Below, piece by piece: positions 13,648 to 33,235 of a stretch of 64,000 bases of DNA. The stretch is from an uncultured Clostridia bacterium (GTDB lineage: Bacteria > Bacillota > Clostridia > Christensenellales > CAG-314): contig CANQNJ010000001.1 in NCBI GenBank assembly GCA_947625185.1, forward strand, positions 8,771 through 72,770, in the 5' to 3' direction. The notes beneath the pieces were generated by a model. It had not been told where the DNA came from, ran no database searches, and worked only from the letters and a program-made list of their open reading frames with translations. How positions within the stretch are numbered: the stretch's first letter is position 1; the number at the start of each line of letters is the position of its first letter. The translations under genes were made by a program, and so were the position numbers.

Positions 13648-14521
13648 ATTATATTATTCCGCATTTTCGTAAAAGTCAAGCATTTTACCGCATATTGTTG
13701 AATATTTTTTCAAACGCCGGTCGCAGCGGTGCATAGCAGCGCGGCATCTGTTGGACAACATAGAACAAATTTATCGAGCATATACAGCCGGACAACGCAG
13801 TGCTTTTGTACTTGTGGCATAACAAAATATCTCAATACGAATAAATCTTGCCGAACGGGCGTGCAAGAAAATATCTGTCGCCGAGGATATCGAGAAAACT
13901 GTCTCCGTTTTGCGTAGCCCGACATTTTTGCATACAAAGCAGGTACGAACAGAGAAGGAGTAATGTAAAAAATTTGAAAACGAACGTCAGATCACACTGA
14001 TATAGGGAGAACAGTGCATCCTTGTATGCAAGCGATAAAACATTCCGAAAGAGAAAGACGATGCTAACGGCAGTTTTTATACGTTCGGTATCCCGTTCAC
14101 CTACTTTCTAATAAAAACAATAAATACATTTTCTATGGACGGTATAATGCTGAGAAAAGCAACTTCCGAAATTGAGAATTTCCGAAGTTTTTCCTTTTAC
14201 GCAATTAGCATAAGCAGGATTGTCGGTAAACGTGATATAGCTTGATCAAAAAATACCCTAAAAGTTTTGTTAACTTTTGGTATGGTGGTGGGGGCTACTA
14301 CTAAAAAAACAAAAGAATTTAGTAGCACGCTTTTGAAGATTATTATACTTTATTGCTGTAAATATTTATTTGAGTGTTTTTTTAAACTGCTAAATGGGAG
14401 TTATGGTTTATATTGTTGATGTTTCATATTTACACAGTAATTGATATTCGTTCTTTTTTTTGTACGGAACCGCTTCCGAGGTAATTTTTTTTCGCTCTTT
14501 TGAAAAATGACCGTTGAAACC

Positions 14522-14550
14522 TTGAAATATGATGCGGAATATGCTATAAT
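14522..14550 (+). promoter_or_regulatory. Near-consensus sigma-A-type promoter for the island operon
   Basis: TTGAAA (14522-14527), a 17-nt spacer, then TATAAT (14545-14550). It lies about 47 nt upstream of the first start codon. Confidence 0.55.
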
Positions 14551-14596
14551 AACAATAAAAAATGTTGTTTTTCGTTATTTTTCGAGTTTCGGAGAA

Positions 14597-15649
14597 ATGA
14601 AAATGAAACAAAGATTTGTTTTTATCAGTCATAGTAATCATCCGTCAGATGTGGATATCTGTGAGCGTCTCTATAAGTATCTCGGCGCTTGCGGTGTTTG
14701 TTGTTGGATGGATCGGGAAGATATGCATTCTGGAAGTTGGAAAGAACAGATCGTCGAAAAGCTTCTCGATGCCTCGGCGTTTATACTGGTAGAAAGTATA
14801 CATTCGCTACAATCTCCGCAGGTGAAAAAAGAAATCAATCTTATGACGTCGACGGAGCGCCCTCTTATTCCATTCGCTTTGGACGAATACTGCTTGTCCT
14901 TGGATAAGGAGAAGGGATCAGCTTTATATGAGCTTGGCGTTGGAGAATTACAGACGGTTTTCCTTAATAGATATCCGCAAGAGTCGTATGCATTCGAAAA
15001 GTTGCTTTCCTATCTCCCACCGGAAGTGATATGTTTTAAGAATGATCCTACGGAATTTCATTTTGATTCGGGTGGAAAGGTTTTGGAGAAATATGTCGGG
15101 CATGATTCCTTTGTTGAGATTCCGGGATTTGTACAAGCTATCGCCGACGGCGCTTTTCGAAATAATTCCGATCTTGTAACGGTTTATATCCCGGATTCAG
15201 TTGAAAGAATCGGTCGCAGAGCATTTTTGGGATGCAGCGCATTAAGTCGCGTTGATGGGATGCGGGGTATTATCGATGTGGATAACTCGGCGTTTAATTA
15301 TACAAATTTGGTATCCGGAGACGGAAAGCCGTTTGTTGTCAATGGAATATTATTTGGCAGTGCGTTGGCAAATGATGCCATACTTCCGTCGGCACGCATG
15401 ATTGCCTCGAATGCATTTTACGGATGTGAGGCGGAAGAGTTAATTTTCGCAGATGGGCTAATAAGTGTCGGCGAGGGGGCATTCATGGATTCTTTTCTGC
15501 GTCGCATTGTTTTTCCTGTAACTTTGAAGCGGATTGGAATGCGGGCATTTGCGTCATGCACGAGACTAAAAGAGGTTGTGTTTTTGGGACAAGTGCCCGA
15601 TAATGCTACATTAATTTTTGACCAAGAAAAAATAAAGGAGAAAAAATAA
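14597..15649 (+). CDS. TIR-domain protein fused to BspA-type leucine-rich repeats (LRR_5-like)
   Basis: GGAGAA precedes the ATG at 14597. The N-terminus FVFISHSNHPSDVDICERLYKYLGACGVCCWMDREDMHSGSWKEQIVEKLLDASAFILVESIHSLQSPQVKKE matches the bacterial TIR_2 pattern. The C-terminal half has repeated IPxxVxxIGxxAFxxCxxL units. No signal peptide or TM helix is evident. Confidence 0.75.
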   Translation: MKMKQRFVFISHSNHPSDVDICERLYKYLGACGVCCWMDREDMHSGSWKEQIVEKLLDASAFILVESIHSLQSPQVKKEINLMTSTERPLIPFALDEYCLSLDKEKGSALYELGVGELQTVFLNRYPQESYAFEKLLSYLPPEVICFKNDPTEFHFDSGGKVLEKYVGHDSFVEIPGFVQAIADGAFRNNSDLVTVYIPDSVERIGRRAFLGCSALSRVDGMRGIIDVDNSAFNYTNLVSGDGKPFVVNGILFGSALANDAILPSARMIASNAFYGCEAEELIFADGLISVGEGAFMDSFLRRIVFPVTLKRIGMRAFASCTRLKEVVFLGQVPDNATLIFDQEKIKEKK

Positions 15650-15650
15650 A

Positions 15651-18248
15651 ATGGCGGGAAAAAGAAACATAAACACTCAAGATTTCGAAAAATTTTTGAA
15701 TGAGATTATTAAGGGTATCGATGCGAGAGAAAATACGGAATGGGAGGAAAAGTCCACCAAAATTTCCGAAGATATTCGCTCCGCGCTCGTCCGGCAGTTT
15801 GATACGCTCAAAGGCGATTGTGATACGAGGTTTTTGGACTACTGTAATACAGTGAAAGCGCTCCTTGCCATTTACAATTTCGGTAATCTCAATGTCGATG
15901 AGAGTGAGAACGAGGTTGCGCAGTTGGACAGGCAGAGGATACTGACGGGGGTTTATAATATCATCAAGCATATTGAAGAGATTGGTTACGATATCACGCC
16001 GTATATTAGTTTAGGCGACTGCAAAACCATTTTTGGGACGGCAGATGGAAAAATTGAACCGCTTACTCTTTCTGCCACGACCGTTCTTACTACATTGATT
16101 TATTTTCGTCGGGCGTACAGTCGGAAAATGATAGCCTTTGAAGAGAGTGAGCTCACGGTTAATGGTGTCGATCTTATGCAAAAAACCGTGGAGCATGTTG
16201 CAAAGATTCTCGTCATGATTGTTGATTATATCGAGTCGATGGAATTCGTTGGGTGGGGGTTTACGTTTACATCGCGCGCGGCTACGTTGAACGACACCTA
16301 TTCAGTCGCTGAGGCACTCGGACGTTTCGAGGATGCATTCACGCAGGAAGATGAGATGAAACGCGATGAAGATTTTACCAATGAGGTGGATCGTTACGGC
16401 GAAATCATTTTGCATCATCAGGGACTCATTAATCGCGCGTTTAGTTCTATTTATAAGACGGCGTTCAATGTATATGACCGCGCAAAGACGGAATATGGAC
16501 ACAATATCTTTTATTCCGGTTCCGTGCGCGAAGGCGATTCGGTAAAGTATGTTTATACCAAAACGGATTATGACCAGATTGCAAGCAGTAATCGTTCGTC
16601 AGCACTCTTCAATCCCCTCTATGTCGCCATGATTACGATGTACGGATATAACGAGAAGGAAATCGTCATACGTTGTTTTATGGATAATTACGAGTTGGCG
16701 GCGAAATACTACGAACAATTCGAAACGGAACTTTCCGGCAAGAAAGAACGTCCAAAAAAGGCAAACGGTGATAAAAAAATCACGCTCAGCGAGTATGCCG
16801 CCGAACTGAAATACTTCGTGAAATATCAATGTGATTTTAACGAGGCGGTGAAACCACTTCTCGAAAAGCACCCGCTCATGTCGAACGATTATTCAGATAA
16901 TAAAAAGTGGAGAATGTGGTATGAAACTGCCCGCGTGTTTCAGAAATATCTTGAAACGCAGGAGCCTGAGCTTCTAATGAAAATCGCCGAATATCGCGAT
17001 TATCTTAACGCGACGAAGGATGCTATTGACCAAGTTCAGATCATGTTCCGCAATTTCGATAACAACCAGCGTCTCGGGATCGTCGATACCGATTATATAA
17101 TGTTTTCACAGCTCGATGTCAATACCGAACTCGTCAATATTTCCAAACTGAACAAAGCGAATATTGCGGTCAACTATCTTCGTCCAATGTTGCTCTCTTC
17201 AAAGATAATGATCGTGAATGCGCTTACGAAATATCCGCAATCGGATATTGAAAATCTGTTCAACTCTATTCTCGAAGCGAGATATCTTCAATTCGTCCCC
17301 GAAAAAAACAGTTGGGATTACGAATGGCTGTGGAATTCGGACGGCATAGATATGAACTCAACGGTTCGCAACTGTGAAGCGATAGCATATGATTACTTCG
17401 ATTATTATGAGAAATACGAGCTTGGACTTAGAGCAATCAATGGGATAAGAAGAAGCATTGGCAGCAATGTAATAAATGCAATCGACGTGGAAACAGGTGC
17501 ATTCTCTGTTGAGAAGGCAATGGGAACGGATAATAGTTTAATCAGTTTCAAACGCATTGTACTTGAAGTCACGCGCCAGAACGTCGATTTGATTCGTACG
17601 GTGTACAAGAGCAGGATTGACGAACTTCAAAAAAAGATCGACGGAATGGAAGAGGAACGGGCTCGCGATCTGGCAAATTATAAACAGAAAATGGAGGAGC
17701 AACGCGCGGACCTCCTTGAACAGAGGGATCAAACACTTGAAAAAATCGAGAACAGTCGGGCGATTGGCGATACCATCCGTAAGTGGATTCGTGAAGAAAC
17801 TAAGAGATATCTTACCGAAATGCTTTCGCAGATTGTCTTAAATAAGCTAAATGGTAACAATAAAGTTAAGAACGGCGAGTATCAACTTGATAGTCTTCTT
17901 GCAAGGAATGGCGGCGAATTTATTGACGCAAATATTCCGGCGATTCGCGCTTATGGTGATAACCTTCGTGCAAATATTACAGGAGATGATTCTTCCGAAG
18001 CGAGAGAATATTATCTTAAAACTTTCAAGGAATCTCTTGCACTTCAAGAGCTTTTCGAGTTAGCGTTTAACGGTATTTTCGACTTGGATGACGTAACGAG
18101 CATCCGCCATTATGACGACATGGTTGTGCCCATGTCCGTTAAAAACGAGGTTATCTCTAAGAATTACGCCGAACGTTTGGATGCGCGTAAACACGGAATT
18201 GAATATGAACCGTATATGGAAAAATCAAATGAAGAATTAAAAAAATAA
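15651..18248 (+). CDS. Large hypothetical protein (865 aa), mostly helical with a C-terminal coiled-coil segment
   Basis: The long clean ORF starts 1 nt after the TIR-LRR stop. I found no recognisable catalytic motif. A charged heptad-like stretch RIDELQKKIDGMEEERARDLANYKQKMEEQRADLLEQRDQTLEKIE is present. Confidence 0.7.
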   Translation: MAGKRNINTQDFEKFLNEIIKGIDARENTEWEEKSTKISEDIRSALVRQFDTLKGDCDTRFLDYCNTVKALLAIYNFGNLNVDESENEVAQLDRQRILTGVYNIIKHIEEIGYDITPYISLGDCKTIFGTADGKIEPLTLSATTVLTTLIYFRRAYSRKMIAFEESELTVNGVDLMQKTVEHVAKILVMIVDYIESMEFVGWGFTFTSRAATLNDTYSVAEALGRFEDAFTQEDEMKRDEDFTNEVDRYGEIILHHQGLINRAFSSIYKTAFNVYDRAKTEYGHNIFYSGSVREGDSVKYVYTKTDYDQIASSNRSSALFNPLYVAMITMYGYNEKEIVIRCFMDNYELAAKYYEQFETELSGKKERPKKANGDKKITLSEYAAELKYFVKYQCDFNEAVKPLLEKHPLMSNDYSDNKKWRMWYETARVFQKYLETQEPELLMKIAEYRDYLNATKDAIDQVQIMFRNFDNNQRLGIVDTDYIMFSQLDVNTELVNISKLNKANIAVNYLRPMLLSSKIMIVNALTKYPQSDIENLFNSILEARYLQFVPEKNSWDYEWLWNSDGIDMNSTVRNCEAIAYDYFDYYEKYELGLRAINGIRRSIGSNVINAIDVETGAFSVEKAMGTDNSLISFKRIVLEVTRQNVDLIRTVYKSRIDELQKKIDGMEEERARDLANYKQKMEEQRADLLEQRDQTLEKIENSRAIGDTIRKWIREETKRYLTEMLSQIVLNKLNGNNKVKNGEYQLDSLLARNGGEFIDANIPAIRAYGDNLRANITGDDSSEAREYYLKTFKESLALQELFELAFNGIFDLDDVTSIRHYDDMVVPMSVKNEVISKNYAERLDARKHGIEYEPYMEKSNEELKK

Positions 18249-18260
18249 AAGAGGATGCTT

Positions 18261-19250
18261 ATGAAAATTATCTCATTCAATTCTTATAAGGGTGGTGCTT
18301 GCAGAACGACCACATGTTACAATGCTTTGCCGTATCTTGCTAAGAAACTCGGAGCAACGGCACAGCAACCAATTCTCGTATTTGATATTGATCTTGACAG
18401 TATGGGTCTAACAAGTATTTTCCGCCCCAATTATGGACGACATTCCGAACGACTTGCTTATTCTTCTCGCAATCTGTTCGTCGATGATTTTGAAGAGTTC
18501 AATGAACGTTTAAGACGCGGGTTGGTTAGTTCAGTTAGTGATAAATATTTCAATGAGAAGAATTTTCAGCGTGTCGGCAACGACCTGGGGCTGGAAGATA
18601 ATGAAAGTGTGCTTTTTTGTGGAGCAGACGAAAATGCCGGAACTATTTCGGATGATGATTTTCGCAGTTTCAAGGAGAATTCCCCGTTGCAGACGCTCAT
18701 CATGGAATTAGAATCTTTTGATGAGGGAAATCAGCCTAAGGCGATCGTATTTGACTGTGCTTCGGGCGTCCAAATGTCCACGGTCACGACGTTCTCCTTT
18801 GTGCAGTGTGCAGTTGTATGTATGAGACCATCGCTCCAATTTCGATTGGGAACATATGACTACCTTCGTAATAAAATCCCTCGTGAGATTAAGAAAGCCA
18901 AAAACAATATGCGTCGCGAAATCATTCTCCTGCCTACTTCCGTTGCCGCCAACGTGGTCTCCGAGTCCGATCCGAACTATGCACGAGCTGTGGATGAACT
19001 CGACCGTTTGCGTAGTCGTACAAAAAACAGGATTGTAGACATTGTGGAAGATATTCAAAATGTTGATGAATGCATCCTGGGCTATACGCTCAATTCGGAG
19101 ATGGCGGAAGTTGACGACTTTGGACTTCCCGAAATCGAGCGCTTTAAATGGCAAGAATTTCTTCTTTATAAGGAGGAAGCGCTTACCGAAAAAGAGAAAC
19201 TTTTGAAGAAAAAATATGAACAGCTTGCAGAAATCCTTGCAAGAGATTGA
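18261..19250 (+). CDS. ParA/MinD-like (SIMIBI) protein with a degenerate Walker A
   Basis: KIISFNSYKGGACRTTTCYNALPYLA...ILVFDIDLDS...AIVFDCASG follows the ParA layout, but KGGxGKT is replaced by KGGACRT. The ATG at 18261 is better spaced from GAGGA (18251-18255) than the ATG at 18255. Confidence 0.65.
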   Translation: MKIISFNSYKGGACRTTTCYNALPYLAKKLGATAQQPILVFDIDLDSMGLTSIFRPNYGRHSERLAYSSRNLFVDDFEEFNERLRRGLVSSVSDKYFNEKNFQRVGNDLGLEDNESVLFCGADENAGTISDDDFRSFKENSPLQTLIMELESFDEGNQPKAIVFDCASGVQMSTVTTFSFVQCAVVCMRPSLQFRLGTYDYLRNKIPREIKKAKNNMRREIILLPTSVAANVVSESDPNYARAVDELDRLRSRTKNRIVDIVEDIQNVDECILGYTLNSEMAEVDDFGLPEIERFKWQEFLLYKEEALTEKEKLLKKKYEQLAEILARD

Positions 19251-19268: not shown

Positions 19269-21761
19269 ATGGAACAAAAGATTACCTGGAACAATGAATC
19301 CGAGGAAATAGATTTTTCAAATGACGAGACTGTCATGCAGCTTTTTCTCGATACCGTTCCCGATCCCGTAGCGCGTGCTATCCTTTTTGGCGTCAAAATA
19401 AACCAAAAACCGAACGTTAAGTTGTGCTCGACATACATTAACAGAGGTGGTATTATACGTGTCATGCGTTCGATTGTGAACCTTGCCTATACAATTGCTT
19501 TGACACGTTGGAGGCAATTGGACGCTGCTTCGGCGGATGAAGAGAAGAGTTGGGGCTATCCTGAGCATATTCGCGATTTTAAGGAGGCACGCTATTCAAA
19601 GCTTTTTCAAAGCGCGCTAGGGGATGAGGATATTACCCTCGATCTTCAAATTTTTTCTCTAATTGAGCTTTGGGTAGGGCTCAAAAAGGCTCGAAACCTT
19701 GTAAGCGGTCGTTTTGGATTACTCTTCAATCAGGCAATCGAGGGGGATGACATTGGTCTCACACTCCAACGCGTGCGTGATTTTATCCGTAATGCATCAT
19801 TTAAGCACAATGAATTAAATCCGAAGTATCCCAAAGAGGAGTGTAACAGGCTTTGCTATAAGCTGTTGGATGCTTTTATGATATTCCGAGCGATAAAGAT
19901 TGGTTATCCCGCCGATGTTCGTCTCGATGATGATGAGGATTTTTCCATTGAATACGATCTAAACCCGAAAGAACATAAAATTCTTTATCCAAATAAGTTT
20001 TCCAATGACAAGTTCATTGTCACGGAGGACCAATTGCGTCGTATGCAAGCGAGATTGGCAGGACAAGACGATACTGTCGAATCCTCTCCGCGCATTATGC
20101 TTTATATGCTCGCTGAGACCTCTGCGTTTAACGGAGAGATACAGCATATATATCGTTCTTTTGACGGGGAAAGCGAAGCGAGGATTCGTTCCAATGAAAT
20201 AAAAAATGACGTCTTTTCTTCCGGAAAAGATGTCCTTGATAATGATGAACTTCGGGAAACACGCAAATTTTTGACTTTTAATTATAAAAACTTGCGTGAC
20301 TTTGCGCTAGTTATCAGTGACGCTCTCAAAAATATGCCCCGTAAGCGCCAAGTCCTTTTTTCCATTTGTAAGCAACGCTTTCCAATGATCGTTGCCAATG
20401 TGCAACGGTACGATGCCTCGGATATTTATTGGGACAATATCGTTACGCTTATGCTAGTGGAGATGGGTTTCAGCGATTTTTTGGAGCAGATCTTAGACGA
20501 CGAATCTATTTTCTATAATATTATGAAAAATATCGGTTGGCGTTGTAGCGGCAGAGAGAGTGTTGAGCGCCTCAACCAATATGAACGAGAGGTGGCTGCA
20601 ATTGAACAGGATGCGAAACAAAGCAAACGTTCTTTGAATGCGAAATATATCCAACTTCGCGTATGCAAAGTGCTCCAAGCGATGAAGTTCATCGGAGATA
20701 ACGATGATGGCTTGCCTAATCCCTTCGAAGAGAACCTTACATCAAAATATGATAATATCTGTAATTGCCTTAATGTTCTGAAACAATATAAGGATGAGCG
20801 GGTAAATATCCATGAGTGTACAGTCGCCAAAAGGGCTTTGATTGAAATTTTCAGCAATACGTTCTGTTTCCTTCAAATCTTTTATAAGGGACTCGACAGC
20901 TATGCGAAGAAAAAAATCGATCTTATGGAAGAAAAACCTTCTTCCGGAATGTTGATGGTTCGTGGAGAAACGACAATGGGTGAGGACGATCATCAAGAAG
21001 AGGATAGCAAGAACAGTGAACGCGAATGGATTGGGAAATACCGCAAAGAATGTTTGGGAGCATTTAAAAGGGGCGCGAGAGAACAATATGAAAAGATCAA
21101 GAAAAATACTCTCAGTCAGCTCTATGATGGTTTTTGTGCGCTCTGCGGACAGTATAATAGTTTTGCCATGAACGGAAGTTTTAATATCAGTGAAGAGGCG
21201 CGTGATCTTAAATTCCTTATTACACGGAATTACATTTGCGATGTTTCTAAATTGAAATTTTTTGCAAGCATCAAACTCGCTAATGGTGAAGAATCGGATA
21301 TATTTCGGATGCTGGAAGGATTTTCTGACAAATATTATACGGATCCTTCTTATCTTGAATGGCTCGACTATTTTCGTGATTTCTTTTTGTTCCTTATTTA
21401 TAATGAAGATTACGACCGAAAGGGGTTGTGGAACGAGGATAATGGCAAGTTGAAAGATAAGGACTGTGATCCGATTTATCCTTACGTTGTCTCCTATTAC
21501 AGTGAAAATATCGACCGCGATCAGTTGAAAAAATGCACATACCGCGTTCCGATTCCGACGGAAAATTCAAACGACGGGGAGTCGAGCATAGTTGTTACTT
21601 TACTGACAGAAGAGAACTATCGTCCTGGAACTTATTTTTGCATTCCTCTTCGCTATGGTTCGAGTGAAAGCTGGTGGATTAATCCCTTTTTGATCCCTAC
21701 GCGTGTGATTGATGACATCGCGAATGAGATCAAAACAGAAAATAAAAAAATAGTTAGGTAA
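19269..21761 (+). CDS. Large hypothetical protein (about 830 aa) with an HEPN-like RNxxxxH motif
   Basis: AAGGAG at 19257-19262 is followed 6 nt later by the ATG at 19269. There is no recognisable enzymatic domain apart from LQRVRDFIRNASFKHNEL (R-x5-H) near residue 180. Confidence 0.65.
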   Translation: MEQKITWNNESEEIDFSNDETVMQLFLDTVPDPVARAILFGVKINQKPNVKLCSTYINRGGIIRVMRSIVNLAYTIALTRWRQLDAASADEEKSWGYPEHIRDFKEARYSKLFQSALGDEDITLDLQIFSLIELWVGLKKARNLVSGRFGLLFNQAIEGDDIGLTLQRVRDFIRNASFKHNELNPKYPKEECNRLCYKLLDAFMIFRAIKIGYPADVRLDDDEDFSIEYDLNPKEHKILYPNKFSNDKFIVTEDQLRRMQARLAGQDDTVESSPRIMLYMLAETSAFNGEIQHIYRSFDGESEARIRSNEIKNDVFSSGKDVLDNDELRETRKFLTFNYKNLRDFALVISDALKNMPRKRQVLFSICKQRFPMIVANVQRYDASDIYWDNIVTLMLVEMGFSDFLEQILDDESIFYNIMKNIGWRCSGRESVERLNQYEREVAAIEQDAKQSKRSLNAKYIQLRVCKVLQAMKFIGDNDDGLPNPFEENLTSKYDNICNCLNVLKQYKDERVNIHECTVAKRALIEIFSNTFCFLQIFYKGLDSYAKKKIDLMEEKPSSGMLMVRGETTMGEDDHQEEDSKNSEREWIGKYRKECLGAFKRGAREQYEKIKKNTLSQLYDGFCALCGQYNSFAMNGSFNISEEARDLKFLITRNYICDVSKLKFFASIKLANGEESDIFRMLEGFSDKYYTDPSYLEWLDYFRDFFLFLIYNEDYDRKGLWNEDNGKLKDKDCDPIYPYVVSYYSENIDRDQLKKCTYRVPIPTENSNDGESSIVVTLLTEENYRPGTYFCIPLRYGSSESWWINPFLIPTRVIDDIANEIKTENKKIVR

Positions 21762-21768
21762 ACATAAT

Positions 21769-22587
21769 ATGAACCATATTATGATCGACGCTTACCGAGG
21801 CAACGAAAGCCGTTTAGATGATATAAAGTCTGTGAACGCCACTCTTAATGAGATTGTACTCGCATTGCATTTGAATGCCGTGATGCCGCCTTTTCTTTTA
21901 CCGTACTATTACGCAAAAGATAGTGAGGACGACGGTATCAGTGCTTTCACTATATTGGAAGGCGGACATATCACTCTTCATACTTTTCCCAAGAGGGGAT
22001 GCGTTTTTGCGGATCTCCTCTATGATGGATATTACGACGAAGCTAAATTAAAAGGAATTCTAAAAACCGCTTTCAGGTGTGTTCCGGTGCCGGACGATCC
22101 GATCCGTACGGAAAGACGGTACCTTGATACGACTATTGACGAGTCACATGTTTGGAAAGGTGGTATGTCGGGAAAGGATTTCGGACCTCATACAATCGCA
22201 AAAATAGATAATGTCGATGTTACTTTGGAAGAGATTTTTGATTTGTTAGACAATATTCCGCGCGAAATCGGCATGTTGCCTATCAGTCGTCCTTATGTTG
22301 TGAAGTCTCATCTTGAAAATCCGACTTACTTTTCAGGTATTGTGCTGATCGCGCAAAGCCATATCGCATTTCATTACAGTGTGCAGGAACGGATATTATT
22401 CTGTGACGCATTTAGTTGCTCGTTTTATAAAAGTGAAAATTTTGTGGAATTTTTGAACCGCCGTTATGGTGATTTTCTGCATATGACAATTATTCGTGGC
22501 AGCAAACATGAGCAAATGATAGACAGCCGTGAATCAAAAGTGAAACAATTGAGCGGTTGGCTTGGTAATTTTAATAAGAGAGGATGA
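21769..22587 (+). CDS. Tandem S-adenosylmethionine-decarboxylase-fold (SpeH/SpeD-like, pyruvoyl-enzyme fold) protein
   Basis: Half 1, GISAFTILEGGHITLHTFPKRGCVFADLLYDG, aligns to the SpeH core [29 protein letters not shown] but lacks the Ser and Cys. Half 2, FSGIVLIAQSHIAFHYSVQERILFCDAFSCS, keeps both Ser and Cys. Confidence 0.65.
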   Translation: MNHIMIDAYRGNESRLDDIKSVNATLNEIVLALHLNAVMPPFLLPYYYAKDSEDDGISAFTILEGGHITLHTFPKRGCVFADLLYDGYYDEAKLKGILKTAFRCVPVPDDPIRTERRYLDTTIDESHVWKGGMSGKDFGPHTIAKIDNVDVTLEEIFDLLDNIPREIGMLPISRPYVVKSHLENPTYFSGIVLIAQSHIAFHYSVQERILFCDAFSCSFYKSENFVEFLNRRYGDFLHMTIIRGSKHEQMIDSRESKVKQLSGWLGNFNKRG

Positions 22588-22590
22588 ACA

Positions 22591-23670
22591 ATGGATTGTA
22601 AGCGATTGACCCAAATAAAAGCGGGCTTGTTGTGCTATGGTGTAAATGTCGATAAAAAGGTGGGCGAAGAACTTCTACGCTCCCGTCCGTATTTCTATGA
22701 TAAGGGATTTGTACACGCCGTCAATGCCAATATAGCAGGTAGCAACGTGTGTGTCAGCGTCGCCGAATGTTTTAGCGGGGTATCGCCATATCATCTTTAT
22801 GGCAAGGACGAAGAATTTTATATAAGAACAGAAGAGGATGAAAGGATCCCAATAAAACTGTTTGACGATCTGCCTAAGACAGGTACCGTGATCGACAATT
22901 TGGCGCGTCCTCATTCTGATTACGTGATCTCAATTTGGCCGTCACTTGTATGCTGTTTTGACAGACCGGGCGCCAAGTGCAAGTTTTGCAGCATCAAGCC
23001 GACGGGTAGTCAGACAGTTGTTCCGAGCAAAGAAGTAATTGAAGGGCTCCATGCCTTGTTTGCAATCACCGATAGATATTCGATCAATATCGGTGGTGGG
23101 ACATACGGGAGTCCTGACAGAATGGCAGATTATCTTACGGAAATCATAGCCGGTATTCGTACCTTTACCCAAACACCGATTTCGGTTGAATTGGCGCCAC
23201 CCGCTGATTTATATCGTATTGAAGCGTTGCGGTCGGCGGGTGCATCCTCGCTCATTATGAATTTGGAGATTGCGGATCCTGAGTTGCGCAAGAAAATCTG
23301 TCCGGGGAAATCCTCGATATCATATGATCATTATTACAAAAGTTACCGCGTTGCAGTCAATACATTCGGCAGAGGAAATGTTTCATGTGTGTTAATTGCC
23401 GGGTTACAGCCAAATGAAAATATCGTCTCAGAGTGCGAAAAATTGACCGACATTGGTGTGATCCCCACAGTCATACCATTTAAGGCGATGGATGACTGCG
23501 AATATCACGATAGGAACAACTGTTCTCCGGAAGATCTCCTTTGGATCAGCGCGCGGGTGGGGTCGATGCTTCGCCAAAAGGAACTTTCGCCCAAAATGCA
23601 GGAGGGGTGCACGAAATGCGGTGGGTGCTCCCTCGAAACAAATTATTACGAAATGTTATTTACAGCGTGA
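22591..23670 (+). CDS. Radical-SAM-like Fe-S protein (non-canonical Cys motif)
   Basis: CCFDRPGAKCKFCS shows C-x7/8-C-x2-C instead of C-x3-C-x2-C. A GGG segment INIGGGTYGS and a TIM-barrel-like alternation are present. A C-terminal CTKCGGCS (C-x2-C-x2-C) gives a second cluster motif. Confidence 0.5.
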   Translation: MDCKRLTQIKAGLLCYGVNVDKKVGEELLRSRPYFYDKGFVHAVNANIAGSNVCVSVAECFSGVSPYHLYGKDEEFYIRTEEDERIPIKLFDDLPKTGTVIDNLARPHSDYVISIWPSLVCCFDRPGAKCKFCSIKPTGSQTVVPSKEVIEGLHALFAITDRYSINIGGGTYGSPDRMADYLTEIIAGIRTFTQTPISVELAPPADLYRIEALRSAGASSLIMNLEIADPELRKKICPGKSSISYDHYYKSYRVAVNTFGRGNVSCVLIAGLQPNENIVSECEKLTDIGVIPTVIPFKAMDDCEYHDRNNCSPEDLLWISARVGSMLRQKELSPKMQEGCTKCGGCSLETNYYEMLFTA

Positions 23671-23673
23671 ATT

Positions 23674-25767
23674 ATGATTCTTTATGATAAGCGCGCAATG
23701 AATGATGTCTCTGTCGTCGGAGGTAAGGGGCTGGGACTCGCAAAGTTGATAAATTATGGTTGTGAAGTTCCGGATTTCTTTATTGTAACGGCGGGAACGG
23801 TTTTGGATGACAAATTTGCAGTGGAACTGATGGAGTTCGCCGCAAAATTGCAGTGTGACTCGTTTTGCGTGCGTTCAAGCAGCGTGTTCGAGGATAGCGT
23901 CGATAATAGTTTTGCAGGTCAATATTTAACTATTTCGAATGTTGGCATTAAAGATTTGCTCGATGCAATCGGGAAGGTGGCGGGTTCTGCCAATACGTCG
24001 ACTGTTGAATTGTATTCTCGTCACTTTCACATGCATCCTTGTGAAATCGCGATTATTGTTCAAAAGCAGATCGCGGGGAAGTATTCCGGTGTCGTATTTA
24101 CGCGCTCATTCTCTTCCGACGAGGAGATTGTGATTGAAAGCGTGGTGGGAAGCGGGGAATTGCTCGTTAGCGGCAGGGTAATTCCATCCAAGGTTGTCGT
24201 TCGTAAGGACTCATCGTATATGGATGTACCTTACGGTTCGGAACTTGTATGTAGTGCGATTAGGCTTGAAAAGGCGGAACGCTGTCCGCTTGATATCGAA
24301 TGGACTTATTCCGATAAACTTTATTTTTTGCAGATGCGGCCGATTACCGTATACGGGGATACATTACCGGAGATTCCGAAAAGAAATTGGAATTTTTATG
24401 TCTATCGGGATTTCTGTCCGCTTGTACACTCTGTGCAAGCCTGTGCTTCCGAGAAGGAAATCCAAGAGAGGCTTTTTGGCTTTTCGGTGCCTATTGCAGA
24501 AGGGATATTGGCGAATGGCAGAGAATTTTATTCCGAAGAAAACGATATTGCCGTTACTCAGATATGGAAAAAACTCGATAAGGACGATTTTTTTAAAAGG
24601 TATATAGGTAAAATCAAGGCGCAAGTATGGCGGACAAAACGATATGCAGACTGCATAAGAGAAAATGGTCGTGTTGGGCTTACGAGTACGCAACTTTTTT
24701 CGGCTTACAGAAAAGCGATTGAAAAATATATCGAGAGTTATGTTCCGCTTATGATGAGACCTGATGATTATCTGTTGGAGACAATGCGATCGATAGTGGG
24801 TGACGAAACAGAAGAAATTTTGGATGTTTTGACGCCTGTATGGAAGAAAACATTTTATTCCGATGAAAAAGCCGATTTTTTGCGGGCGAAGATAAGAAAC
24901 GATGCCGATGCTTACATTGAAAAATATGAATGGACTTGCGCTCCGCTCGGAAAAACGGTCAATCATATGACGAAAGAGAGCGTCGAACGGCGTTTTAGCA
25001 GGTTGACGATGGAGCAGGCGGAAGAGTCGCTTTGTTGTATAGAAGAAAAAAGGAACGAACGGAGGAAAAGGTTTTTTTCCTTATTGAAAGCAGAGAATTT
25101 GCCTAATGAACTGAGGCGGTTGTTTTTGCTGATTGCCGAGTTTATCTATCTACGCACTTATACGGCGGAAAACAGTGATCGCCTATTTTTCTATATTCGT
25201 GAAAATATTCTGTCTGCAATTGCGGAGCAAACGGGTGTTTCTCTTACGGAATTGTTATATATGACTTATGATGAAATTGCAGAGATGGAAAATGGTCATA
25301 AACCGAATCGTGGGACGATCGCAAAGCGCAAATGCGGAGAACTTATTCTTTTTTTCAATGGAAATCATCGTGCCTATTATGGAAATTCCGTTGGTTCTCT
25401 CCTTGCAGAATTAATGCCGTACGAGGAAACGGAAGAGACTGTCCTTTCGGGCGATATCGCATGCTCGGGTCAAGTCTGTGGACGCGTTTGCATCGTACGT
25501 GATTTTTGTGAAGTAGAAAAGGCAAAAGAAGGCGATATCATTGTGACTTCGATGACGACGCCGGAACTTGTTACCGCGCTTGAAAAGGCTAGCGGAATTA
25601 TTACGGACGAGGGCGGTATCACTTGCCACGCCGCAATTCTCTCTCGCGAGTTTGGGGTGCCTTGTCTTGTGGGTACTAAATTCGCAACTCGTGCGCTTCG
25701 CGATGGAATGAAAGTTCGGTTGGACTGCATTCACGGAAAGGTAGAAAAATTGTCAAATGATATTTGA
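23674..25767 (+). CDS. PEP-synthase/PPDK-like kinase: N-terminal ATP-grasp (PPDK_N) plus C-terminal phosphohistidine swivel domain, with no PEP/pyruvate TIM barrel
   Basis: VGGKGLGLAKL and FCVRSSSVFEDSVDNSFAGQYLTISNV give the PPDK_N signature. IVTSMTTPELVTALEKASGIITDEGGITCHAAILSREFGVPCLVG gives the mobile domain with the catalytic His. About 350 aa of uncharacterised middle region separates them. Confidence 0.8.
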   Translation: MILYDKRAMNDVSVVGGKGLGLAKLINYGCEVPDFFIVTAGTVLDDKFAVELMEFAAKLQCDSFCVRSSSVFEDSVDNSFAGQYLTISNVGIKDLLDAIGKVAGSANTSTVELYSRHFHMHPCEIAIIVQKQIAGKYSGVVFTRSFSSDEEIVIESVVGSGELLVSGRVIPSKVVVRKDSSYMDVPYGSELVCSAIRLEKAERCPLDIEWTYSDKLYFLQMRPITVYGDTLPEIPKRNWNFYVYRDFCPLVHSVQACASEKEIQERLFGFSVPIAEGILANGREFYSEENDIAVTQIWKKLDKDDFFKRYIGKIKAQVWRTKRYADCIRENGRVGLTSTQLFSAYRKAIEKYIESYVPLMMRPDDYLLETMRSIVGDETEEILDVLTPVWKKTFYSDEKADFLRAKIRNDADAYIEKYEWTCAPLGKTVNHMTKESVERRFSRLTMEQAEESLCCIEEKRNERRKRFFSLLKAENLPNELRRLFLLIAEFIYLRTYTAENSDRLFFYIRENILSAIAEQTGVSLTELLYMTYDEIAEMENGHKPNRGTIAKRKCGELILFFNGNHRAYYGNSVGSLLAELMPYEETEETVLSGDIACSGQVCGRVCIVRDFCEVEKAKEGDIIVTSMTTPELVTALEKASGIITDEGGITCHAAILSREFGVPCLVGTKFATRALRDGMKVRLDCIHGKVEKLSNDI

Positions 25768-28418: not shown

Positions 28419-28561
28419 AATTATGTTCGGAGATTTTGTCCGAAGCGCGGCATCTTGCCCGCGGCGCTGGATAGTGAACGTGCTGTTCGATTGCAAATTT
28501 ATGCGTCGCAAAAGGCACTTCGGACGTCAACCAACGACAACACTCATCGGAGGAAAAACAA

Positions 28562-30523
28562 TTGAACAAAACTTACGAAGCAAAAGACATACAGGTCCTG
28601 GAAGGTCTCGACGCCGTCCGTATGCGTCCCGGTATGTACATAGGCACAACGGGCCGCACGGGCTTGCATCACCTGTTGTGGGAGATAGTGGACAACGCCG
28701 TCGACGAAGCCAGCAACGGCTATGCCGACAAGGTCGAGGTCACTCTTCACAAGGACGGAAGCGTCACCGTAAAGGACAACGGCAGAGGTATCCCCGTAGA
28801 CGAACATCCGCAGCTTAAAATCAGCGGCGTCGAAGTGGTGTTTACTCAACTGCACGCGGGCGGCAAATTCAACAACGAGAATTATGCGTTCAGCGGCGGT
28901 CTGCACGGCGTGGGCGCAAGCGTGACGAACGCGCTGTCGAGTTGGCTTACCGTCAATGTCAAGAAGCAGGGCTATGAGTACGAGCAACACTTTCACAGCC
29001 CCGTCGACGAGAACGGCAAGGTACTCAGCGGCGTGCCCAAGGACCACTTGACCAAGATCGGCGAGACTACCGAACACGGCAGCACGATAACGTTCCTTGC
29101 GGACGCGCGCGTTTTCAAGAACGTCCAGATGGATTACGAAGTAATACACAAGCGCATCAAGGAGCTTGCCTTCCTCAACAAAGGCATTACGTTTGTGCTT
29201 ACCGACGAACGCGCCGACGACGATGACGGCAACGTCAAGAGCGAAACGTTCTGCTACAACGGCGGATTGAGAGACTTTGTGCTTTATCTCAACGAAAACA
29301 AGGCTCCGTTGCACCTTACGCCGCTGTATTGGAGCGGCAAGAACGATACTTTGCAGTTGGAATTTGCCTTTCAATACACGACCAACTACACGGAGAACCT
29401 CATCAGCTATGTCAACAACATACCCACCGGCGAGGGCGGTATGCACGAGACAGGTCTCAAAACGGCTATGACCAAGGTGTTCAACGACTATGCCCGCAGC
29501 AAGGGCTTCCTCAAAGCCAAAGACGACAATCTGTTGGGAGAAGATTTCCGCGAGGGTATAACGCTGGTAATGTCCGTCAAGATGGCTAACGTGCAGTTCG
29601 AGGGACAGACCAAGACAAAACTGGGCAACGTCGAGGCAAAAGTCGCCTGCGAAGCGCTTGCGACGGACGCCTTTACCGAGCTGCTCGCCAAGAACGGCGC
29701 CGACGCCGAGACCATCATCAAGAAATCTATCGCTTCGGCAAAGGTAAGAGAAGCGGCGCGCAAAGCCAAGGAGGTCACCCGTCAGAAGAACAGCATATTC
29801 AACAGTACTCTCGTAGGCAAATTGGCAAGCTGCACGGGTCGTGACGCAAGCAAGAACGAACTGTTCATCGTCGAGGGTGACAGCGCGGGCGGCAGCGCCA
29901 AGCAAGCGCGTAACCGTCGTTTTCAGGCAATATTGCCTTTGCGCGGCAAACCGCTCAACGCCGAGCGCAAGCGCATAGACCAGGTGCTTGCCAACGAAGA
30001 AATACGTTCGCTTATCAACGCGCTGGATACGGGTATCGGCGAAGAGGACTTCAATATAGAAGATCTCAAATACGACAAGATAATAATACTTTCCGATGCG
30101 GACCAGGACGGCGCGCACATAAGGGCGATATTGTTGACGTTTTTCTTCCGTTATATGCGCGAGCTTATCACCGACGGACACGTTTATATAGGTATGCCGC
30201 CTTTGTACAAGATATCCAAGAAAGACAAGGTGCGTTACGCGTACGACGACTACGAATTGCAGGAGATCGTCGGCGAATTCGGGCGCGGATACGATTTGCA
30301 ACGTTACAAGGGCTTGGGCGAGATGAATGCCGAACAGCTGTGGGAAACGACAATGAACCCCGAAACGCGTACTCTTATGCGCGTCACGATAGAGGACTTC
30401 TCCGAGGCGGAGCGTATGGTAACTACGCTTATGGGCGACGAGATAGAAGCGCGCAAGGCATACATAACGGAAAACGCCGATTTCAACAAGGATAACGACG
30501 CCTTGTTCAACAAGTTGGTGTAG
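28562..30523 (+). CDS. parE: Type IIA DNA topoisomerase subunit B (GyrB/ParE family; ParE-like judged from its partner)
   Basis: TTG start. [16 protein letters not shown], a GHKL ATPase, a Toprim [11 protein letters not shown] and PLRGK are present. The product is 653 aa. The parE versus gyrB assignment is an inference. Confidence 0.85.
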
Positions 30524-30536
30524 AGAGGTACGATAT

Positions 30537-33026
30537 ATGAGTCAGCAAGTAGATATATTCGATTTGGAACACAGCGACATAGTAAAGATGGAGGACGGCT
30601 CCAATCTGCTTACCAAGCCGATGGAAGTGGTGATGCACGAGTCGATGATGCCCTATGCGGAGCATGTTATTCTGGACCGCGCCTTGCCGCGCGTCGAGGA
30701 CGGATTGAAGCCCGTTCAGCGTCGCATATTGTACTCTATGTACGAGCAGGGCAACACTCCCGACAAGCCCACGCGCAAGTCGGCGCGCATTGTCGGCGAT
30801 TGTATGGGACGTTATCACCCGCACGGCGACAGCTCCATATACGACGCGATGGTGCGTATGGCGCAACCCTTCGCGATGAACGTGCCGCTTATTATCGGTC
30901 AGGGCAATTTCGGCAATATCGACGGCGACAGCGCCGCGGCAATGCGTTATACCGAGGCAAAGCTGTCTCCCTGCGCGTTGGAATTGTTGCGGGACATCGA
31001 GAAGGACACCGTGCGTTGGGAGCGTAACTTCGACGATACCACGCAGGAGCCGGCAATGCTCCCGGGACGTTTTCCCAATCTGTTGGTCAACGGCGCCACG
31101 GGCATAGCGGTGGGTCTTGCGACAAATATCCCGCCTCACAATTTCGGCGAGGTGATAGACGGTACCATCGCCTATATAGATAACCCGAGGATAAATCTTG
31201 CCTCTATGATGAAGATCATCAAGGGACCGGACTTTCCGACGGGCGGACACGTCATCCCGGGAGAAGGTCTCGCTCAGGCGTACGAAACGGGCAAGGGCAA
31301 GATCACTATCCGCGCGCGTATGCACATCGAGGTTGCGCCCGGCGATCGCAAAAATATCGTCATCACCGAGATTCCCTACGGTATCAACAAGGCGGATATG
31401 CTCATAAAGATAGCCGCTTTGAAGGACGAGAAGAAGGATATGTTCCAGGGCATATCGGAGATAGTGGACGAAAGCGACAAGGAAGGTCTGCGCGCGGTCA
31501 TCAAATTGCGTAAAGACTGCGACGTAAAGCAAACCATCAACAATTTGTTCAAATATTCGCAGTTGGAGATGTCTTACGGTATCAATATGGTCGCCATAGC
31601 CGACGGTAAACCGCAGCTTATGGGATTGTTGGATATCATAGCCTACTATGTGGCGTATCAACGCGACGTGATACTCAAACGCAGCAAGTTCGAGTTGGAA
31701 GAGGCCAAGGAGCGCGCTCATATTTTGCAGGGATTGGTGATAGCCGTCAACAACATCGACGAGGTCATCAAGATAATCAAGAACGCCGCCTCGACGACGG
31801 ACGCGCGCAACAAATTGAGAGAACGTTTCGACCTCAGCGAACGTCAGGCGCAAGCGATATTGGACCTGCGTCTTGCGCGTATCACCAAGTTGGAAGTAAA
31901 CAAGCTGGAAAACGAACTCAGAGAACTCGAACATACGATTGCTCGTCTCAACGTGATAATCAACAGCCGCAAGGAGCAGATGGATCTTATCAAGACGGAA
32001 CTTTCCGCGCTCAAACGCAACTACAAGTCGCCGCGGCTTACGGAGATATGCAAGTCGGAGGATGACGCCGTCATTCCGAGCGAAACGGACGAGAAACCCG
32101 TCGAGACGGTGGTAGTGGGTATTGCCGCCGATTACGGTATCAAGCGTATTCCTTCCAAGAACTTCAATATGTCTCAAAAGGACGACGCCATCGGCAGCGC
32201 CTCGTCGGAGCTGTTGACGCGCGCCATAGAGACCAAGACGGACGCCAACGTGATGTTTTTCAGCAATATGGGCAATTGCTTCCGCACCAAGGTGGGAGAC
32301 CTGCCCGAGATAAGATATCGCGATCCCGGCGCCAAACTGTCGCAGATATTCCCCGAGGCAAGCATGGGCGAATCTCCCGTCGCCGTATTCGCGCAGAGCG
32401 GCGAAGAGGTAAGCGGCGAATTGCTGTTCTATACGCGCCAGGGTATGATAAAACGCAGTTCTTGGAGCGAGTATCAATTGCTTAAATCGGTATTTCAAGG
32501 TTACAAGGGCAAGGACGGCGACGAAGTGTTCAAGGTGGAAGTCATTCGCGACAATACGGAAATATTCTACGTCACCAACCTCGGCGGCTGTACCCGTTTC
32601 GATGTAAGCGAAGTTCCGCTTCAAGGCAGAGTGGCTGGCGGCGTACACTGCATCAATCTCGCCGAGGACGAGTATGTGGTATTTGCAGGTCAGGTGGAAC
32701 GCGACAAGGGCGAAGTGCTTATGGCAACCAATAAGGGCTTTATGAAGCGCCTTTCCGTAAAAGATATCGCCAAGCACGCCCGCAACTGTAAGGGCGCCAA
32801 GGGTATCGAGTTCGGCAACAACGGTACCGATATCGTATTTGCCGACTATGTAAACGGCACGCCGTTCAAGCTTGCCGTATACGACAGAGCCAACACCTAC
32901 GTTGTGGACGCTGCGGATGTCAGCGTTGAGAGCAAGAATCACAAAGGCAAACTTCCGCAAGGCAAGAAAGGCGGCATAGCGGTGGAGAAGATTATTCGCT
33001 ATTGCACGGGAGCCTCCAAAGAATAG
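30537..33026 (+). CDS. parC: Type IIA DNA topoisomerase subunit A (GyrA/ParC family; ParC-like)
   Basis: [12 protein letters not shown] (Q as in ParC, where GyrA has H) and the catalytic [10 protein letters not shown] are present. The beta-pinwheel CTD has no recognisable GyrA box (QRRGGKG). Confidence 0.85.
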
Positions 33027-33050
33027 CGCTCGGGTGATTCCGCGCAAAAC

Positions 33051-33115
33051 GGCTTCGCTTCGGGCTTCGCCCTCGTTGCAGATTATTTTGCAGCCAATAC
33101 CCTCGCGCTCGGTGG
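33051..33115 (+). repeat. Repeat family 2, copy 1 (GGCTTC..TCGGGC..GCCCTCGTTGCAGATTATTTTGCAGCCAATACCCTCGCGCTCGGTGG)
   Basis: The shared core CCCTCGTTGCAGATTATTTTGC also occurs at 33192-33235, 33288-33316 and, inverted, at 51953-52013. Confidence 0.8.
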
Positions 33116-33164
33116 AACAAGGTCGGAATTTAATTAAAAAACAAGTATAGAAGAATGATTCATT

Positions 33165-33235
33165 CGCGCCCCCACATTCGTATGTGGGGGCGCTCATTGC
33201 AGATTATTTTGCAGCCAATACCCTCGCGCTTGGTG
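33165..33235 (+). repeat. GC hairpin (CGCCCCCACAT-tcg-ATGTGGGGGCG) followed by repeat family 2, copy 2
   Basis: CTCATTGCAGATTATTTTGCAGCCAATACCCTCGCGCTTGGTG is near-identical to copy 1 over about 40 nt. Confidence 0.8.

Follow-up and report, generated by a model that had tools for sequence, protein, structure and literature searches.

Genes of the cassette and features of g3

The DNA analysed here, referred to as the window, is a stretch of 64,000 nucleotides from an uncultured Clostridia bacterium (assembly GCA_947625185.1, contig CANQNJ010000001.1), and all positions are those of the window. It contains a tightly packed run of seven plus-strand genes, g1 to g7, with intergenic gaps of 1–18 nt (Table 1). 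Our subject is g3, a protein of the ParA/MinD fold in which the lysine of the phosphate-binding loop (P-loop) is replaced by arginine, together with the conserved cassette in which it lies. GC content is 36–46% in the cassette and 49–55% in its flanks. One flank carries genes for ABC transporters, a P-type ATPase and an ArsR regulator; in the other are those for a MurG-like glycosyltransferase and a GyrB/ParE-type topoisomerase. The cassette looks like an island in the chromosome.

Table 1. Positions of the cassette genes, of the nucleotide-site motifs of g3 and of a promoter candidate in the window
Feature	Position	Strand	Evidence or remark
g1, cytosolic protein with N-terminal TIR domain and BspA-type LRR_5 repeats	14507–15649	+	Pfam TIR_2 1.9e-15, LRR_5 2.1e-24
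Best sigma-70-like promoter candidate, TTGAAA-17-TATAAT with TG extension	14522–14550	+	11/12 consensus match only
g2, 865-aa orphan	15651–18248	+	adjoins g3 on the upstream side
g3, ParA/MinD-fold protein with Arg P-loop	18261–19250	+	329 aa
g3 deviant Walker A, K10-G-G-A-C14-R15-T16-T17	18288–18311	+	translation, homologue alignment, register to pNOB8 ParA
g3 switch I, F-D42-I-D44-L-D46-S47 (residues 41–47)	18381–18401	+	aligned with the ParA 'IDFDA' segment
g3 Walker B/switch II, V-F-D165-C-A-S-G169 (residues 163–169)	18747–18767	+	D165 and G169 invariant in 86 relatives
g4, 830-aa orphan	19269–21761	+	no family matches
g5, fused double AdoMetDC/SpeD-like pyruvoyl decarboxylase	21769–22587	+	Pfam AdoMet_dc 4.9e-21, two stretches
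g6, variant radical S-adenosylmethionine (SAM) enzyme	22591–23670	+	NF045502 144 bits, cutoff 125
g7, phosphoenolpyruvate (PEP)-synthase/rifampin-phosphotransferase-like protein, ATP-grasp PPDK_N and swivelling His domain	23674–25767	+	Pfam PPDK_N 2.4e-35, PEP-utilizers 1.3e-23

The N-terminus of g3 reads MKIISFNSYKGGACRTTTCYN in the translation of 18261–19250. An upstream ATG at 18255 is listed as the start by the open reading frame (ORF) finder; we prefer 18261 because an AGAGGA Shine-Dalgarno sequence lies 8 nt upstream of it and homologues begin with MKIISF. An earlier note made from this DNA had reported KGGACRTT in place of the Walker A motif, FDIDLDS as a switch region and VFDCASG as a Walker-B-like segment. 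The first is exact in the translation (K10 to T17), and the other two are residues 41–47 and 163–169. Reading the 329 residues directly, we found no GK dipeptide anywhere in g3, and GK[ST] is likewise absent; therefore no canonical P-loop is hidden elsewhere in the protein.

Fold and register of the P-loop

The AlphaFold2 model of g3, built on an alignment of 72 family sequences, has a predicted local distance difference test score (pLDDT) of 92.5 and a predicted template modelling score of 0.92. When it was compared with the PDB by Foldseek, the top 50 matches were all of MipZ/ParA/MinD/FlhG/FleN/Soj/McdA/BcsQ/NifH/BchL type (E 2e-7 to 3e-5), with 11–18% identity to g3, and the closest structural neighbours were MipZ, ParA, MinD and FlhG. 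In the alignment of the 72-sequence profile with pNOB8 ParA (5k5z), KGGaCRttt lies over KGGVGKTTT and 'vfDvDldsmGlt' over 'LIDFDA-QMSLT'. Pfam gives only a weak AAA_31 match to g3 (E 1e-3, residues 1–45), and the NCBIfam, Pfam AAA_31 and ParA_partition models all align to this same N-terminus. The SIMIBI ParA/MinD fold and the assignment of the Walker A column, both proposed in the earlier note, are confirmed by the structure model and the alignments. More specifically, g3 has the Rossmann-like SIMIBI fold with the P-loop between strand 1 and helix 1, the lysine of KGG and the aspartates of switch I and Walker B, and lacks the cis lysine of GK[ST].

Compared with ParA, Soj, MinD, MipZ and FlhG, g3 has in common the fold, the KGG lysine, the DxD of switch I, the hhhhD pattern of Walker B and G-I-P-E near the C-terminus. 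In g3 the cis lysine is arginine and, in its clade, the glycine is cysteine. Moreover, g3 has no ParB, MinE or MinC partner, and searches of plasmid and phage collections gave no member of its family. An insertion of ~60 residues after switch I (residues ~55–115) sets g3 apart from canonical ParA/MinD-type ATPases; in one branch of the family, with proteins of 400–470 aa, this insertion is enlarged to ~130 residues.

The best NCBIfam match of g3 is NF047398, 'KGGVGR-motif variant AAA ATPase' (E 1e-11, residues 1–198, profile positions 2–182 of 190), and the same family is the best one for all of 86 diverse relatives (best E 1.9e-19). Like g3, NF047398 has a ParA-like P-loop in which KGG is kept and arginine stands for the cis lysine. 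Its motif is KGGVGR and that of the g3 family KGG[SA][GC]R; R15 of g3 corresponds to the arginine that replaces the Walker A lysine after KGGxG in NF047398, but cysteine and not glycine precedes it. The score of g3 (45.6 bits) is below the curated cutoff of 90, and by this score and the best E among the relatives the g3 family is a sister group of NF047398, not a member. TIGR03371 (BcsQ) is not among the g3 matches and matches weakly in 7 of the 86 relatives. In public records the relatives are named 'hypothetical', 'AAA family ATPase' or, in JGI, 'BcsQ'.

Conservation of the arginine P-loop

Replacement of the Walker A lysine is not a peculiarity of the window. Searching 5.8 billion protein clusters gave 101 close homologues (31–100% identity), almost all from uncultured Clostridia, and KGG[AS]CRTTTC[YF] is kept in 97 of them, at 31–87% identity, which is much more than chance would give. 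As for the exceptions, the two most distant homologues read KGG[AS]GR and one fragment has CS. An exhaustive profile search of 1.84 billion protein representatives found 411 family members at E≤1e-3, 142 of these at E≤1e-30. The P-loop of 137 further representatives from this search is KGG[SA]GR in ~125, KGG[AST]CR in 11 and KGGSGA in one; KGGxGK occurs in none of the 137. The earlier note had raised the question of whether orthologues share the Cys-Arg substitution: they do, and in the wider sample the lysine position is arginine in 177 of 178 family members (138 GR, 39 CR, 1 GA). The only two members without this arginine that we found are P0140 (KGGSGATTT) and P0099 (KGGACSTTT, a fragment of 185 aa).

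The rest of the nucleotide site has been retained as well. K10, G11, G12, N21, D44, D165 and G169 are invariant in the 86 relatives, which have 23–51% identity to g3, and R15, D42, S47, G49, Q171, R189 and the C-terminal G-I-P-E...F-K-W are at least 90% conserved among them. K10, G11 and G12 are also invariant in the 72 close relatives. Even at ~25% identity, K10, G11/12, Thr/Ser16, D42, D44 and D165 of the nucleotide site vary little or not at all. Because arginine is near-universal across the family, its substitution for lysine is, on the evidence of these alignments, an old and selected signature of the whole family and not decay. A homology search with a broad profile gave no relatives named 'KGGVGR' and none fused to other domains. 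In the literature we found nothing relevant on KGGVGR, KGGSGR, KGGAGR or KGGACR, on natural arginine-for-lysine Walker A motifs, or on NF047398.

The preceding glycine has a different history. On a neighbour-joining tree of 178 family members, which was built with the P-loop columns removed and is rough at such divergence, glycine is ancestral at position 14. Cys14 occurs in one large clade of 32 leaves, to which g3 belongs, and in five small groups; Fitch parsimony counts six changes. The change from glycine to cysteine thus appears, as far as this tree goes, to be later than that from lysine to arginine and to have arisen more than once. Wherever the glycine is replaced among the 178 members, cysteine takes its place. 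The earlier note had called GK(T/S) invariant; it was right that the cis lysine is replaced, but the glycine before that lysine is not fixed in active ParAs, since SopA reads KGGVYKT (PMC9178275 Table 1).

Strict coupling of Cys14 to the radical-SAM and PPDK-like genes was considered and rejected. In the genome sample these two genes are present in every KGGxCR locus with a long enough contig and in no KGGxGR locus, with the exception of an opposite-strand PPDK-like match in locus L036. However, L094 (KGGSCRS) and L097 (KGGACRT) have the core cassette without either gene. Four cysteines around the nucleotide site, C14, C19, C166 and C187, are conserved in the window's clade; C187 is at least 90% conserved family-wide; conservation of C19 stops at the clade. 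The four might conceivably form a metal or redox site.

Genes around g3 in the window

The TIR domain of g1 has an invariant Glu109 in the context S..V-K-K-E, and W67, D69, D72 and G76 are also conserved (63 homologues), which is consistent with an active NAD-processing TIR. The true start of g1 is probably M31 or M33 (14597/14603; MKMKQRFVFISHS), the long ORF being over-extended, because a promoter-like site lies inside the long ORF and the first ~30 residues are absent in most homologues. The total of sigma-70-like sites in the region is not above that in shuffled sequence. Upstream of the cassette there is an AT-rich (36–42% GC), non-coding stretch of ~850 bp (13650–14500) with no plus-strand ORF of at least 60 aa. 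It has no Rfam match at E≤1 and no tRNA, the one tRNA in the whole window being far from the cassette; the stretch may be an island boundary or a regulatory leader.

The orphans g2 and g4 gave no Pfam, NCBIfam, PADLOC or PDB sequence match, profile searches included, and for g2 there was also no significant Foldseek match. The model of g2 (pLDDT 80) has a helical body (residues ~30–600) followed by a single helix of ~100 residues (631–733). In g4 a conserved N-terminal domain of ~260 aa is joined to an optional, fast-evolving and poorly conserved C-terminal region of ~500 aa, and short forms of g4 consist of the N-terminal 260 profile positions. The two orphans were considered as paralogues; this was rejected, as there is no BLASTP similarity between them.

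The enzyme g5 shows the traits of the SpeD family, namely the AdoMet_dc match and a Ser-His processing site. Specifically, Ser197-His198 in its C-terminal half is conserved in at least 95% of 70 sequences, while the N-terminal half reads L-E-G-G-H and has lost the pyruvoyl-forming processing serine. SpeD homologues neofunctionalised to arginine or ornithine decarboxylases and SpeD-SpeD fusions of 271–318 aa have been documented (PMC10407285). In the Victivallis fusion described there the C-terminal domain is degenerate; g5 is the opposite, with a degenerate N-terminal half. The radical-SAM enzyme g6 carries the cluster motif C121-C122-x6-C129-x2-C132 instead of CxxxCxxC and an additional C-terminal CxxCxxC, and it is distantly related to the MSMEG_0568 family. 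g7 has the domain set of PEP synthase, rifamycin phosphotransferase and PigC/RedH, to which its strongest partial matches in NCBIfam belong.

Elsewhere in the window, two long antisense ORFs, 28544–30301 (minus strand, against 28562–30523 on the plus strand) and 30507–33197 (minus strand, against 30537–33026 on the plus strand), are shadows and not genes. They overlap real genes, for example the plus-strand GyrB/ParE-type gene, and are typical of GC-rich coding regions.

The cassette in other loci

The comparison drew on 92 loci, taken from metagenomes and from a set with a single genome for each species (scanning 185,579 species gave 207 relatives; 80 loci were retained), and the cassette genes were detected in them with iterated hidden Markov models of the seven window proteins. 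The hosts are nearly all gut or rumen Clostridia, for instance Christensenellales, Oscillospiraceae and Coproplasma. g2 is present in 89 loci, g4 in 85, the TIR/LRR gene in 74, the SpeD-like gene in 70, the radical-SAM gene in 18 and the PPDK-like gene in 19, and the order is collinear throughout.

Several architectures recur. TIR-g2-g3-g4-g5 is seen in 20 loci and TIR-g2-g3-g4 without g5 in 10; in L047, which belongs to the latter class, a GNAT acetyltransferase overlaps the end of g4. In ~19 loci, those of the window's KGGxCR clade, the arrangement is extended to TIR-g2-g3-g4-g5-radical SAM(-PPDK). The g6 gene is confined to this clade in the genome and metagenome loci sampled, and in L001, L003 and L008 the PPDK gene has shifted to the other side and strand but is still linked. 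Ten loci have no TIR and instead read PAD-g2-g3-g4-g5, where PAD is an agmatine-deiminase-family protein (PF04371, E about 1e-88), followed by a conserved orphan of 512 aa. About 10 more combine a long TIR protein, PAD, g2, g3, a short g4 and g5. Altogether, agmatine-deiminase-family enzymes occupy the variable slot in ~25 loci, and in one C-type locus the first position is taken by a gene of the arginase/agmatinase family.

The loci without TIR are L024, L026, L027, L031, L035, L036, L042, L054, L079 and L085. Their ~512-aa orphan stands directly after g5 (e.g. 13935–15473 in L035), has no Pfam match and may be an alternative effector. Beside the cassette, on either side, an accessory pair of a ~726-aa orphan and a ~751-aa RyR-domain protein is found in ~14 loci (e.g. 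L008:2021–6421, L044:1957–6482, L004:17422–19578); the window lacks it. In L057 (g2), L072 (g3), L020 (g6) and L085 (g4) one cassette gene is broken into two ORFs, which could be decaying copies or assembly errors.

Two features of one branch stand out as decisive. In L098–L100, loci of the 400–470-aa g3 branch, the downstream protein of 917 aa is a g4 homologue with a TIR inserted at residues ~572–802, a Rosetta-stone fusion. The same loci carry a pyridoxal phosphate (PLP)-dependent Orn/Lys/Arg decarboxylase (OKR_DC_1) in the decarboxylase slot and no pyruvoyl SpeD-like enzyme, a non-orthologous displacement. From the g4-TIR fusion, the decarboxylase displacement and the gene linkage across loci, the predicted functional core is g2, g3 and the N-terminal domain of g4, with a TIR enzyme and a basic-amino-acid decarboxylase.

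What the arginine P-loop would do

The explanation that we consider best for the whole body of results, with a probability of about 0.55, is that g3 is an arginine-P-loop switch serving as the central NTPase of a mobile conflict cassette. We infer nucleotide binding, slow hydrolysis and a switch role of g3, as well as a defence function of the cassette, from sequence comparison and analogy. Since all other nucleotide-site residues are kept, the site probably still binds Mg-nucleotide and has not decayed. g3 would then bind a Mg-bound nucleoside triphosphate and form a nucleotide-sandwich dimer through Lys10 in trans. Arg15 would make hydrolysis slow or dependent on a partner, and g3 would be a long-lived switch or assembly hub, not a fast ATPase.

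Known proteins provide precedents for such behaviour. In MinD, K11 in trans and K16 in cis act on the phosphates (PMC7840130). ParA of plasmid F (SopA) with the engineered substitution K120R retains ATP binding and loses hydrolysis. BcsQ (RGGVGTT) is, like g3, a protein of the SIMIBI ParA/MinD fold that naturally lacks the cis lysine (PMC7840130; PMC9178275 Table 1); with threonine in that place it is by default an ATP-loaded sandwich dimer with weak ATPase activity and works as an assembly hub (PMC7840130). In BcsQ the trans lysine has also become arginine and the water-activating aspartate cysteine or serine, whereas g3 keeps Lys10 and Asp42/Asp44. The Bcs context (BcsR, BcsA, BcsE) is absent around g3, whose neighbours are the TIR protein, the orphans and the SpeD-like, radical-SAM and PPDK-like enzymes. 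By analogy, BcsQ would be the best mechanistic precedent for g3.

Two other accounts of the P-loop have to be weighed. The earlier note had suggested a pseudo-ATPase scaffold with abolished or strongly altered ATP hydrolysis, and in its strict form this would mean that the Arg/Cys P-loop binds no nucleotide and that g3 only connects g2, g4 and the enzymes as a structural adaptor. Essentially all family members have indeed lost the canonical cis lysine, MinD K16A is ATPase-deficient (quoted in PMC7840130), and inactive MinD/ParA-like domains have been predicted in other conflict systems by Kaur et al. 2020. However, the deep invariance of Lys10, the two glycines, Thr/Ser16, Asp42/44 and Asp165 is hard to explain without a bound Mg-nucleotide, arginine retains the positive charge, and ATP is still bound by both ParA_F K120R and the lysine-less BcsQ. 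The loss of lysine stands, but a decayed site is unlikely; we find a true pseudo-ATPase very doubtful. By sequence and precedent, a dead enzyme is less likely than a dimer switch that depends on nucleotide and hydrolyses it slowly or under the control of a partner. The changed loop could otherwise reflect a changed ligand or chemistry: g3 might bind something other than ATP, for example an ADP-ribose-derived signal made by the TIR or a phosphorylated intermediate, or it might be a BioD/CobQ-like ATP-dependent ligase acting on an amine-derived molecule. The constant linkage of g3 to decarboxylase, agmatine deiminase, agmatinase, GNAT, radical-SAM and PPDK-like enzymes would fit this, as would the replacement of glycine only by cysteine, apparently repeatedly. 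A lead may come from phosphate loops that contain arginine, for instance CX5R[ST] in phosphatases, which are good binders of phosphate. It is important to note that the signature lysine of KGG and the MinD-like IPE motif typify dimer-switch ATPases and not BioD/CobQ-type ligases, that the top structural neighbours are MipZ, ParA, MinD and FlhG, and that Cys14 is tied to no single enzyme set, L094 and L097 having it without radical-SAM or PPDK-like genes. A changed ligand or chemistry is unlikely in our view.

Defence system or polyamine module

For the cassette as a whole we propose that g2, g3 and g4, a TIR NAD-processing enzyme and a basic-amino-acid decarboxylase would work together with variable amine- or guanidino-modifying enzymes, g3 being the central NTPase; in the window the variable enzymes are the radical-SAM enzyme and the PPDK-like phosphotransferase. 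g2 and g4 may sense or scaffold, a role that is a guess, and the dimer switch of g3 would license the output, that is, TIR activity and small-molecule chemistry of arginine/agmatine type. In a further and more doubtful reading, that of an undescribed immune system, an amine made by the decarboxylase (agmatine or putrescine) might be joined by the TIR to ADP-ribose as a signal; alternatively, arginine, polyamines and NAD+ might all be depleted at once in infected cells. On this reading the radical-SAM and PPDK-like enzymes of the window's clade would modify the amine-derived molecule further.

That the cassette is a horizontally mobile conflict system, probably directed against phages, has about even odds. 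This reading is favoured because of the TIR and its fusion to g4, the patchy distribution, the GC content, the varied insertion sites, the swapping of outer enzymes and the fast evolution of g2 and g4. Specifically, out of 185,579 species genomes no more than 207 have relatives, cassette flanks differ between loci, which indicates different insertion sites in different genomes, and recombinase, integrase, Mob or SIR2 genes adjoin the cassette in some loci; the outer genes are swapped in a modular way. Several observations weigh on the other side. The 113 flanking ORFs match 157 Pfam families, mostly of housekeeping type, with few PADLOC matches, and enrichment in defence islands is not supported by this census. 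Collections of phages, plasmids and viral contigs gave no member of the g3 family, ~10 loci are without any TIR match, neither g2 nor g4 could be assigned to a known fold or family, and a role in polyamine metabolism would account just as well for the recurrence of decarboxylase, agmatine deiminase and agmatinase.

The last point leads to an explanation other than immunity, in which the cassette is a metabolic or regulatory module for polyamines or agmatine and g3 positions or assembles an enzyme complex as ParA/MinD proteins do with their cargo. Nearly all cassettes have a decarboxylase, and in one branch an Orn/Lys/Arg decarboxylase that is not homologous to the usual one has taken its place; there is also the recurrence of agmatine deiminase, agmatinase and GNAT, and the flanks are mostly housekeeping genes. 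SpeD homologues are known as arginine or ornithine decarboxylases, and co-occurrence with AguA or SpeB has been used to predict arginine decarboxylase activity for them (PMC10407285). Yet no SpeE, AguB, CASDH or other downstream polyamine genes are found in the cassette, a TIR with the conserved catalytic-type glutamate is present in ~80% of the loci and is even fused into g4, and neither the very patchy distribution and atypical GC content nor the fast evolution of g2 and g4 and the modular shuffling of outer genes suits such a module. We regard it as improbable.

Among known defence systems, Thoeris, TIR-STING/CBASS, TIR-SAVED and Avs-TIR resemble the cassette in that a TIR with a conserved catalytic-type glutamate is encoded next to sensor or NTPase partners, within one mobile set of several genes. 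They differ from it in that the cassette has no ThsA, SIR2, SLOG, cyclase or STAND NTPase, its NTPase is ParA-like and an amino-acid decarboxylase belongs to its core. PADLOC-DB v2 matched no defined system: g1 matches at the level of the TIR domain only, g3 weakly at the level of the P-loop (PDC-M28B, 8e-5), and g2, g4, g5 and g6 not at all. Kaur, Burroughs, Iyer and Aravind 2020 (eLife) describe predicted-inactive MinD/ParA-like domains in vWA-MoxR (VMAP) ternary conflict systems. VMAP systems share with the cassette a MinD/ParA-like module in an NTP-dependent conflict system with TIR and other effectors. Their MinD/ParA domains, known from actinobacteria and cyanobacteria, are fused to effector or AP-ATPase proteins and need vWA and MoxR as partners, whereas g3 stands alone, is found in Clostridia and has g2 and g4 as partners. 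Neither vWA nor MoxR has a Pfam match in the seven cassette genes of the window or in the cassette genes of related loci. Literature searches gave nothing relevant on combinations of TIR with decarboxylase or agmatine, or of SAM decarboxylase with radical SAM and TIR.

Significance

Arginine in place of lysine in a ParA-like P-loop has already been catalogued as NF047398, while the surrounding cassette appears to be undescribed in Pfam, NCBIfam, PADLOC and the searchable literature. The conserved cassette is the larger and more interesting result than the Walker A change from which the analysis started. The g3 family, which counts 411 representatives at 50% identity, amounts to a natural experiment on the P-loop on a large scale, in which the cis lysine has become arginine and the other catalytic residues are fixed. 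It offers a way to go further than the one example of BcsQ and to test how the choice between lysine and arginine affects how long a nucleotide-sandwich dimer lasts.

In the cassette, two orphan proteins of ~800 aa link a TIR enzyme with amino-acid decarboxylation and with guanidino/amine chemistry. As a tentative idea, more doubtful than not, the cassette could be an undescribed immune system of gut Clostridia in which a ParA-like dimer switch with an arginine P-loop, and not a STAND, AAA+ or ABC NTPase, couples two orphan sensors or scaffolds to TIR activity and arginine/ornithine decarboxylation. If this is true, it would add a class of ParA-like NTPases and a polyamine/arginine branch to bacterial TIR signalling. 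If the role is metabolic, the cassette would represent an unusual regulated agmatine/polyamine route in abundant uncultured gut Clostridia.

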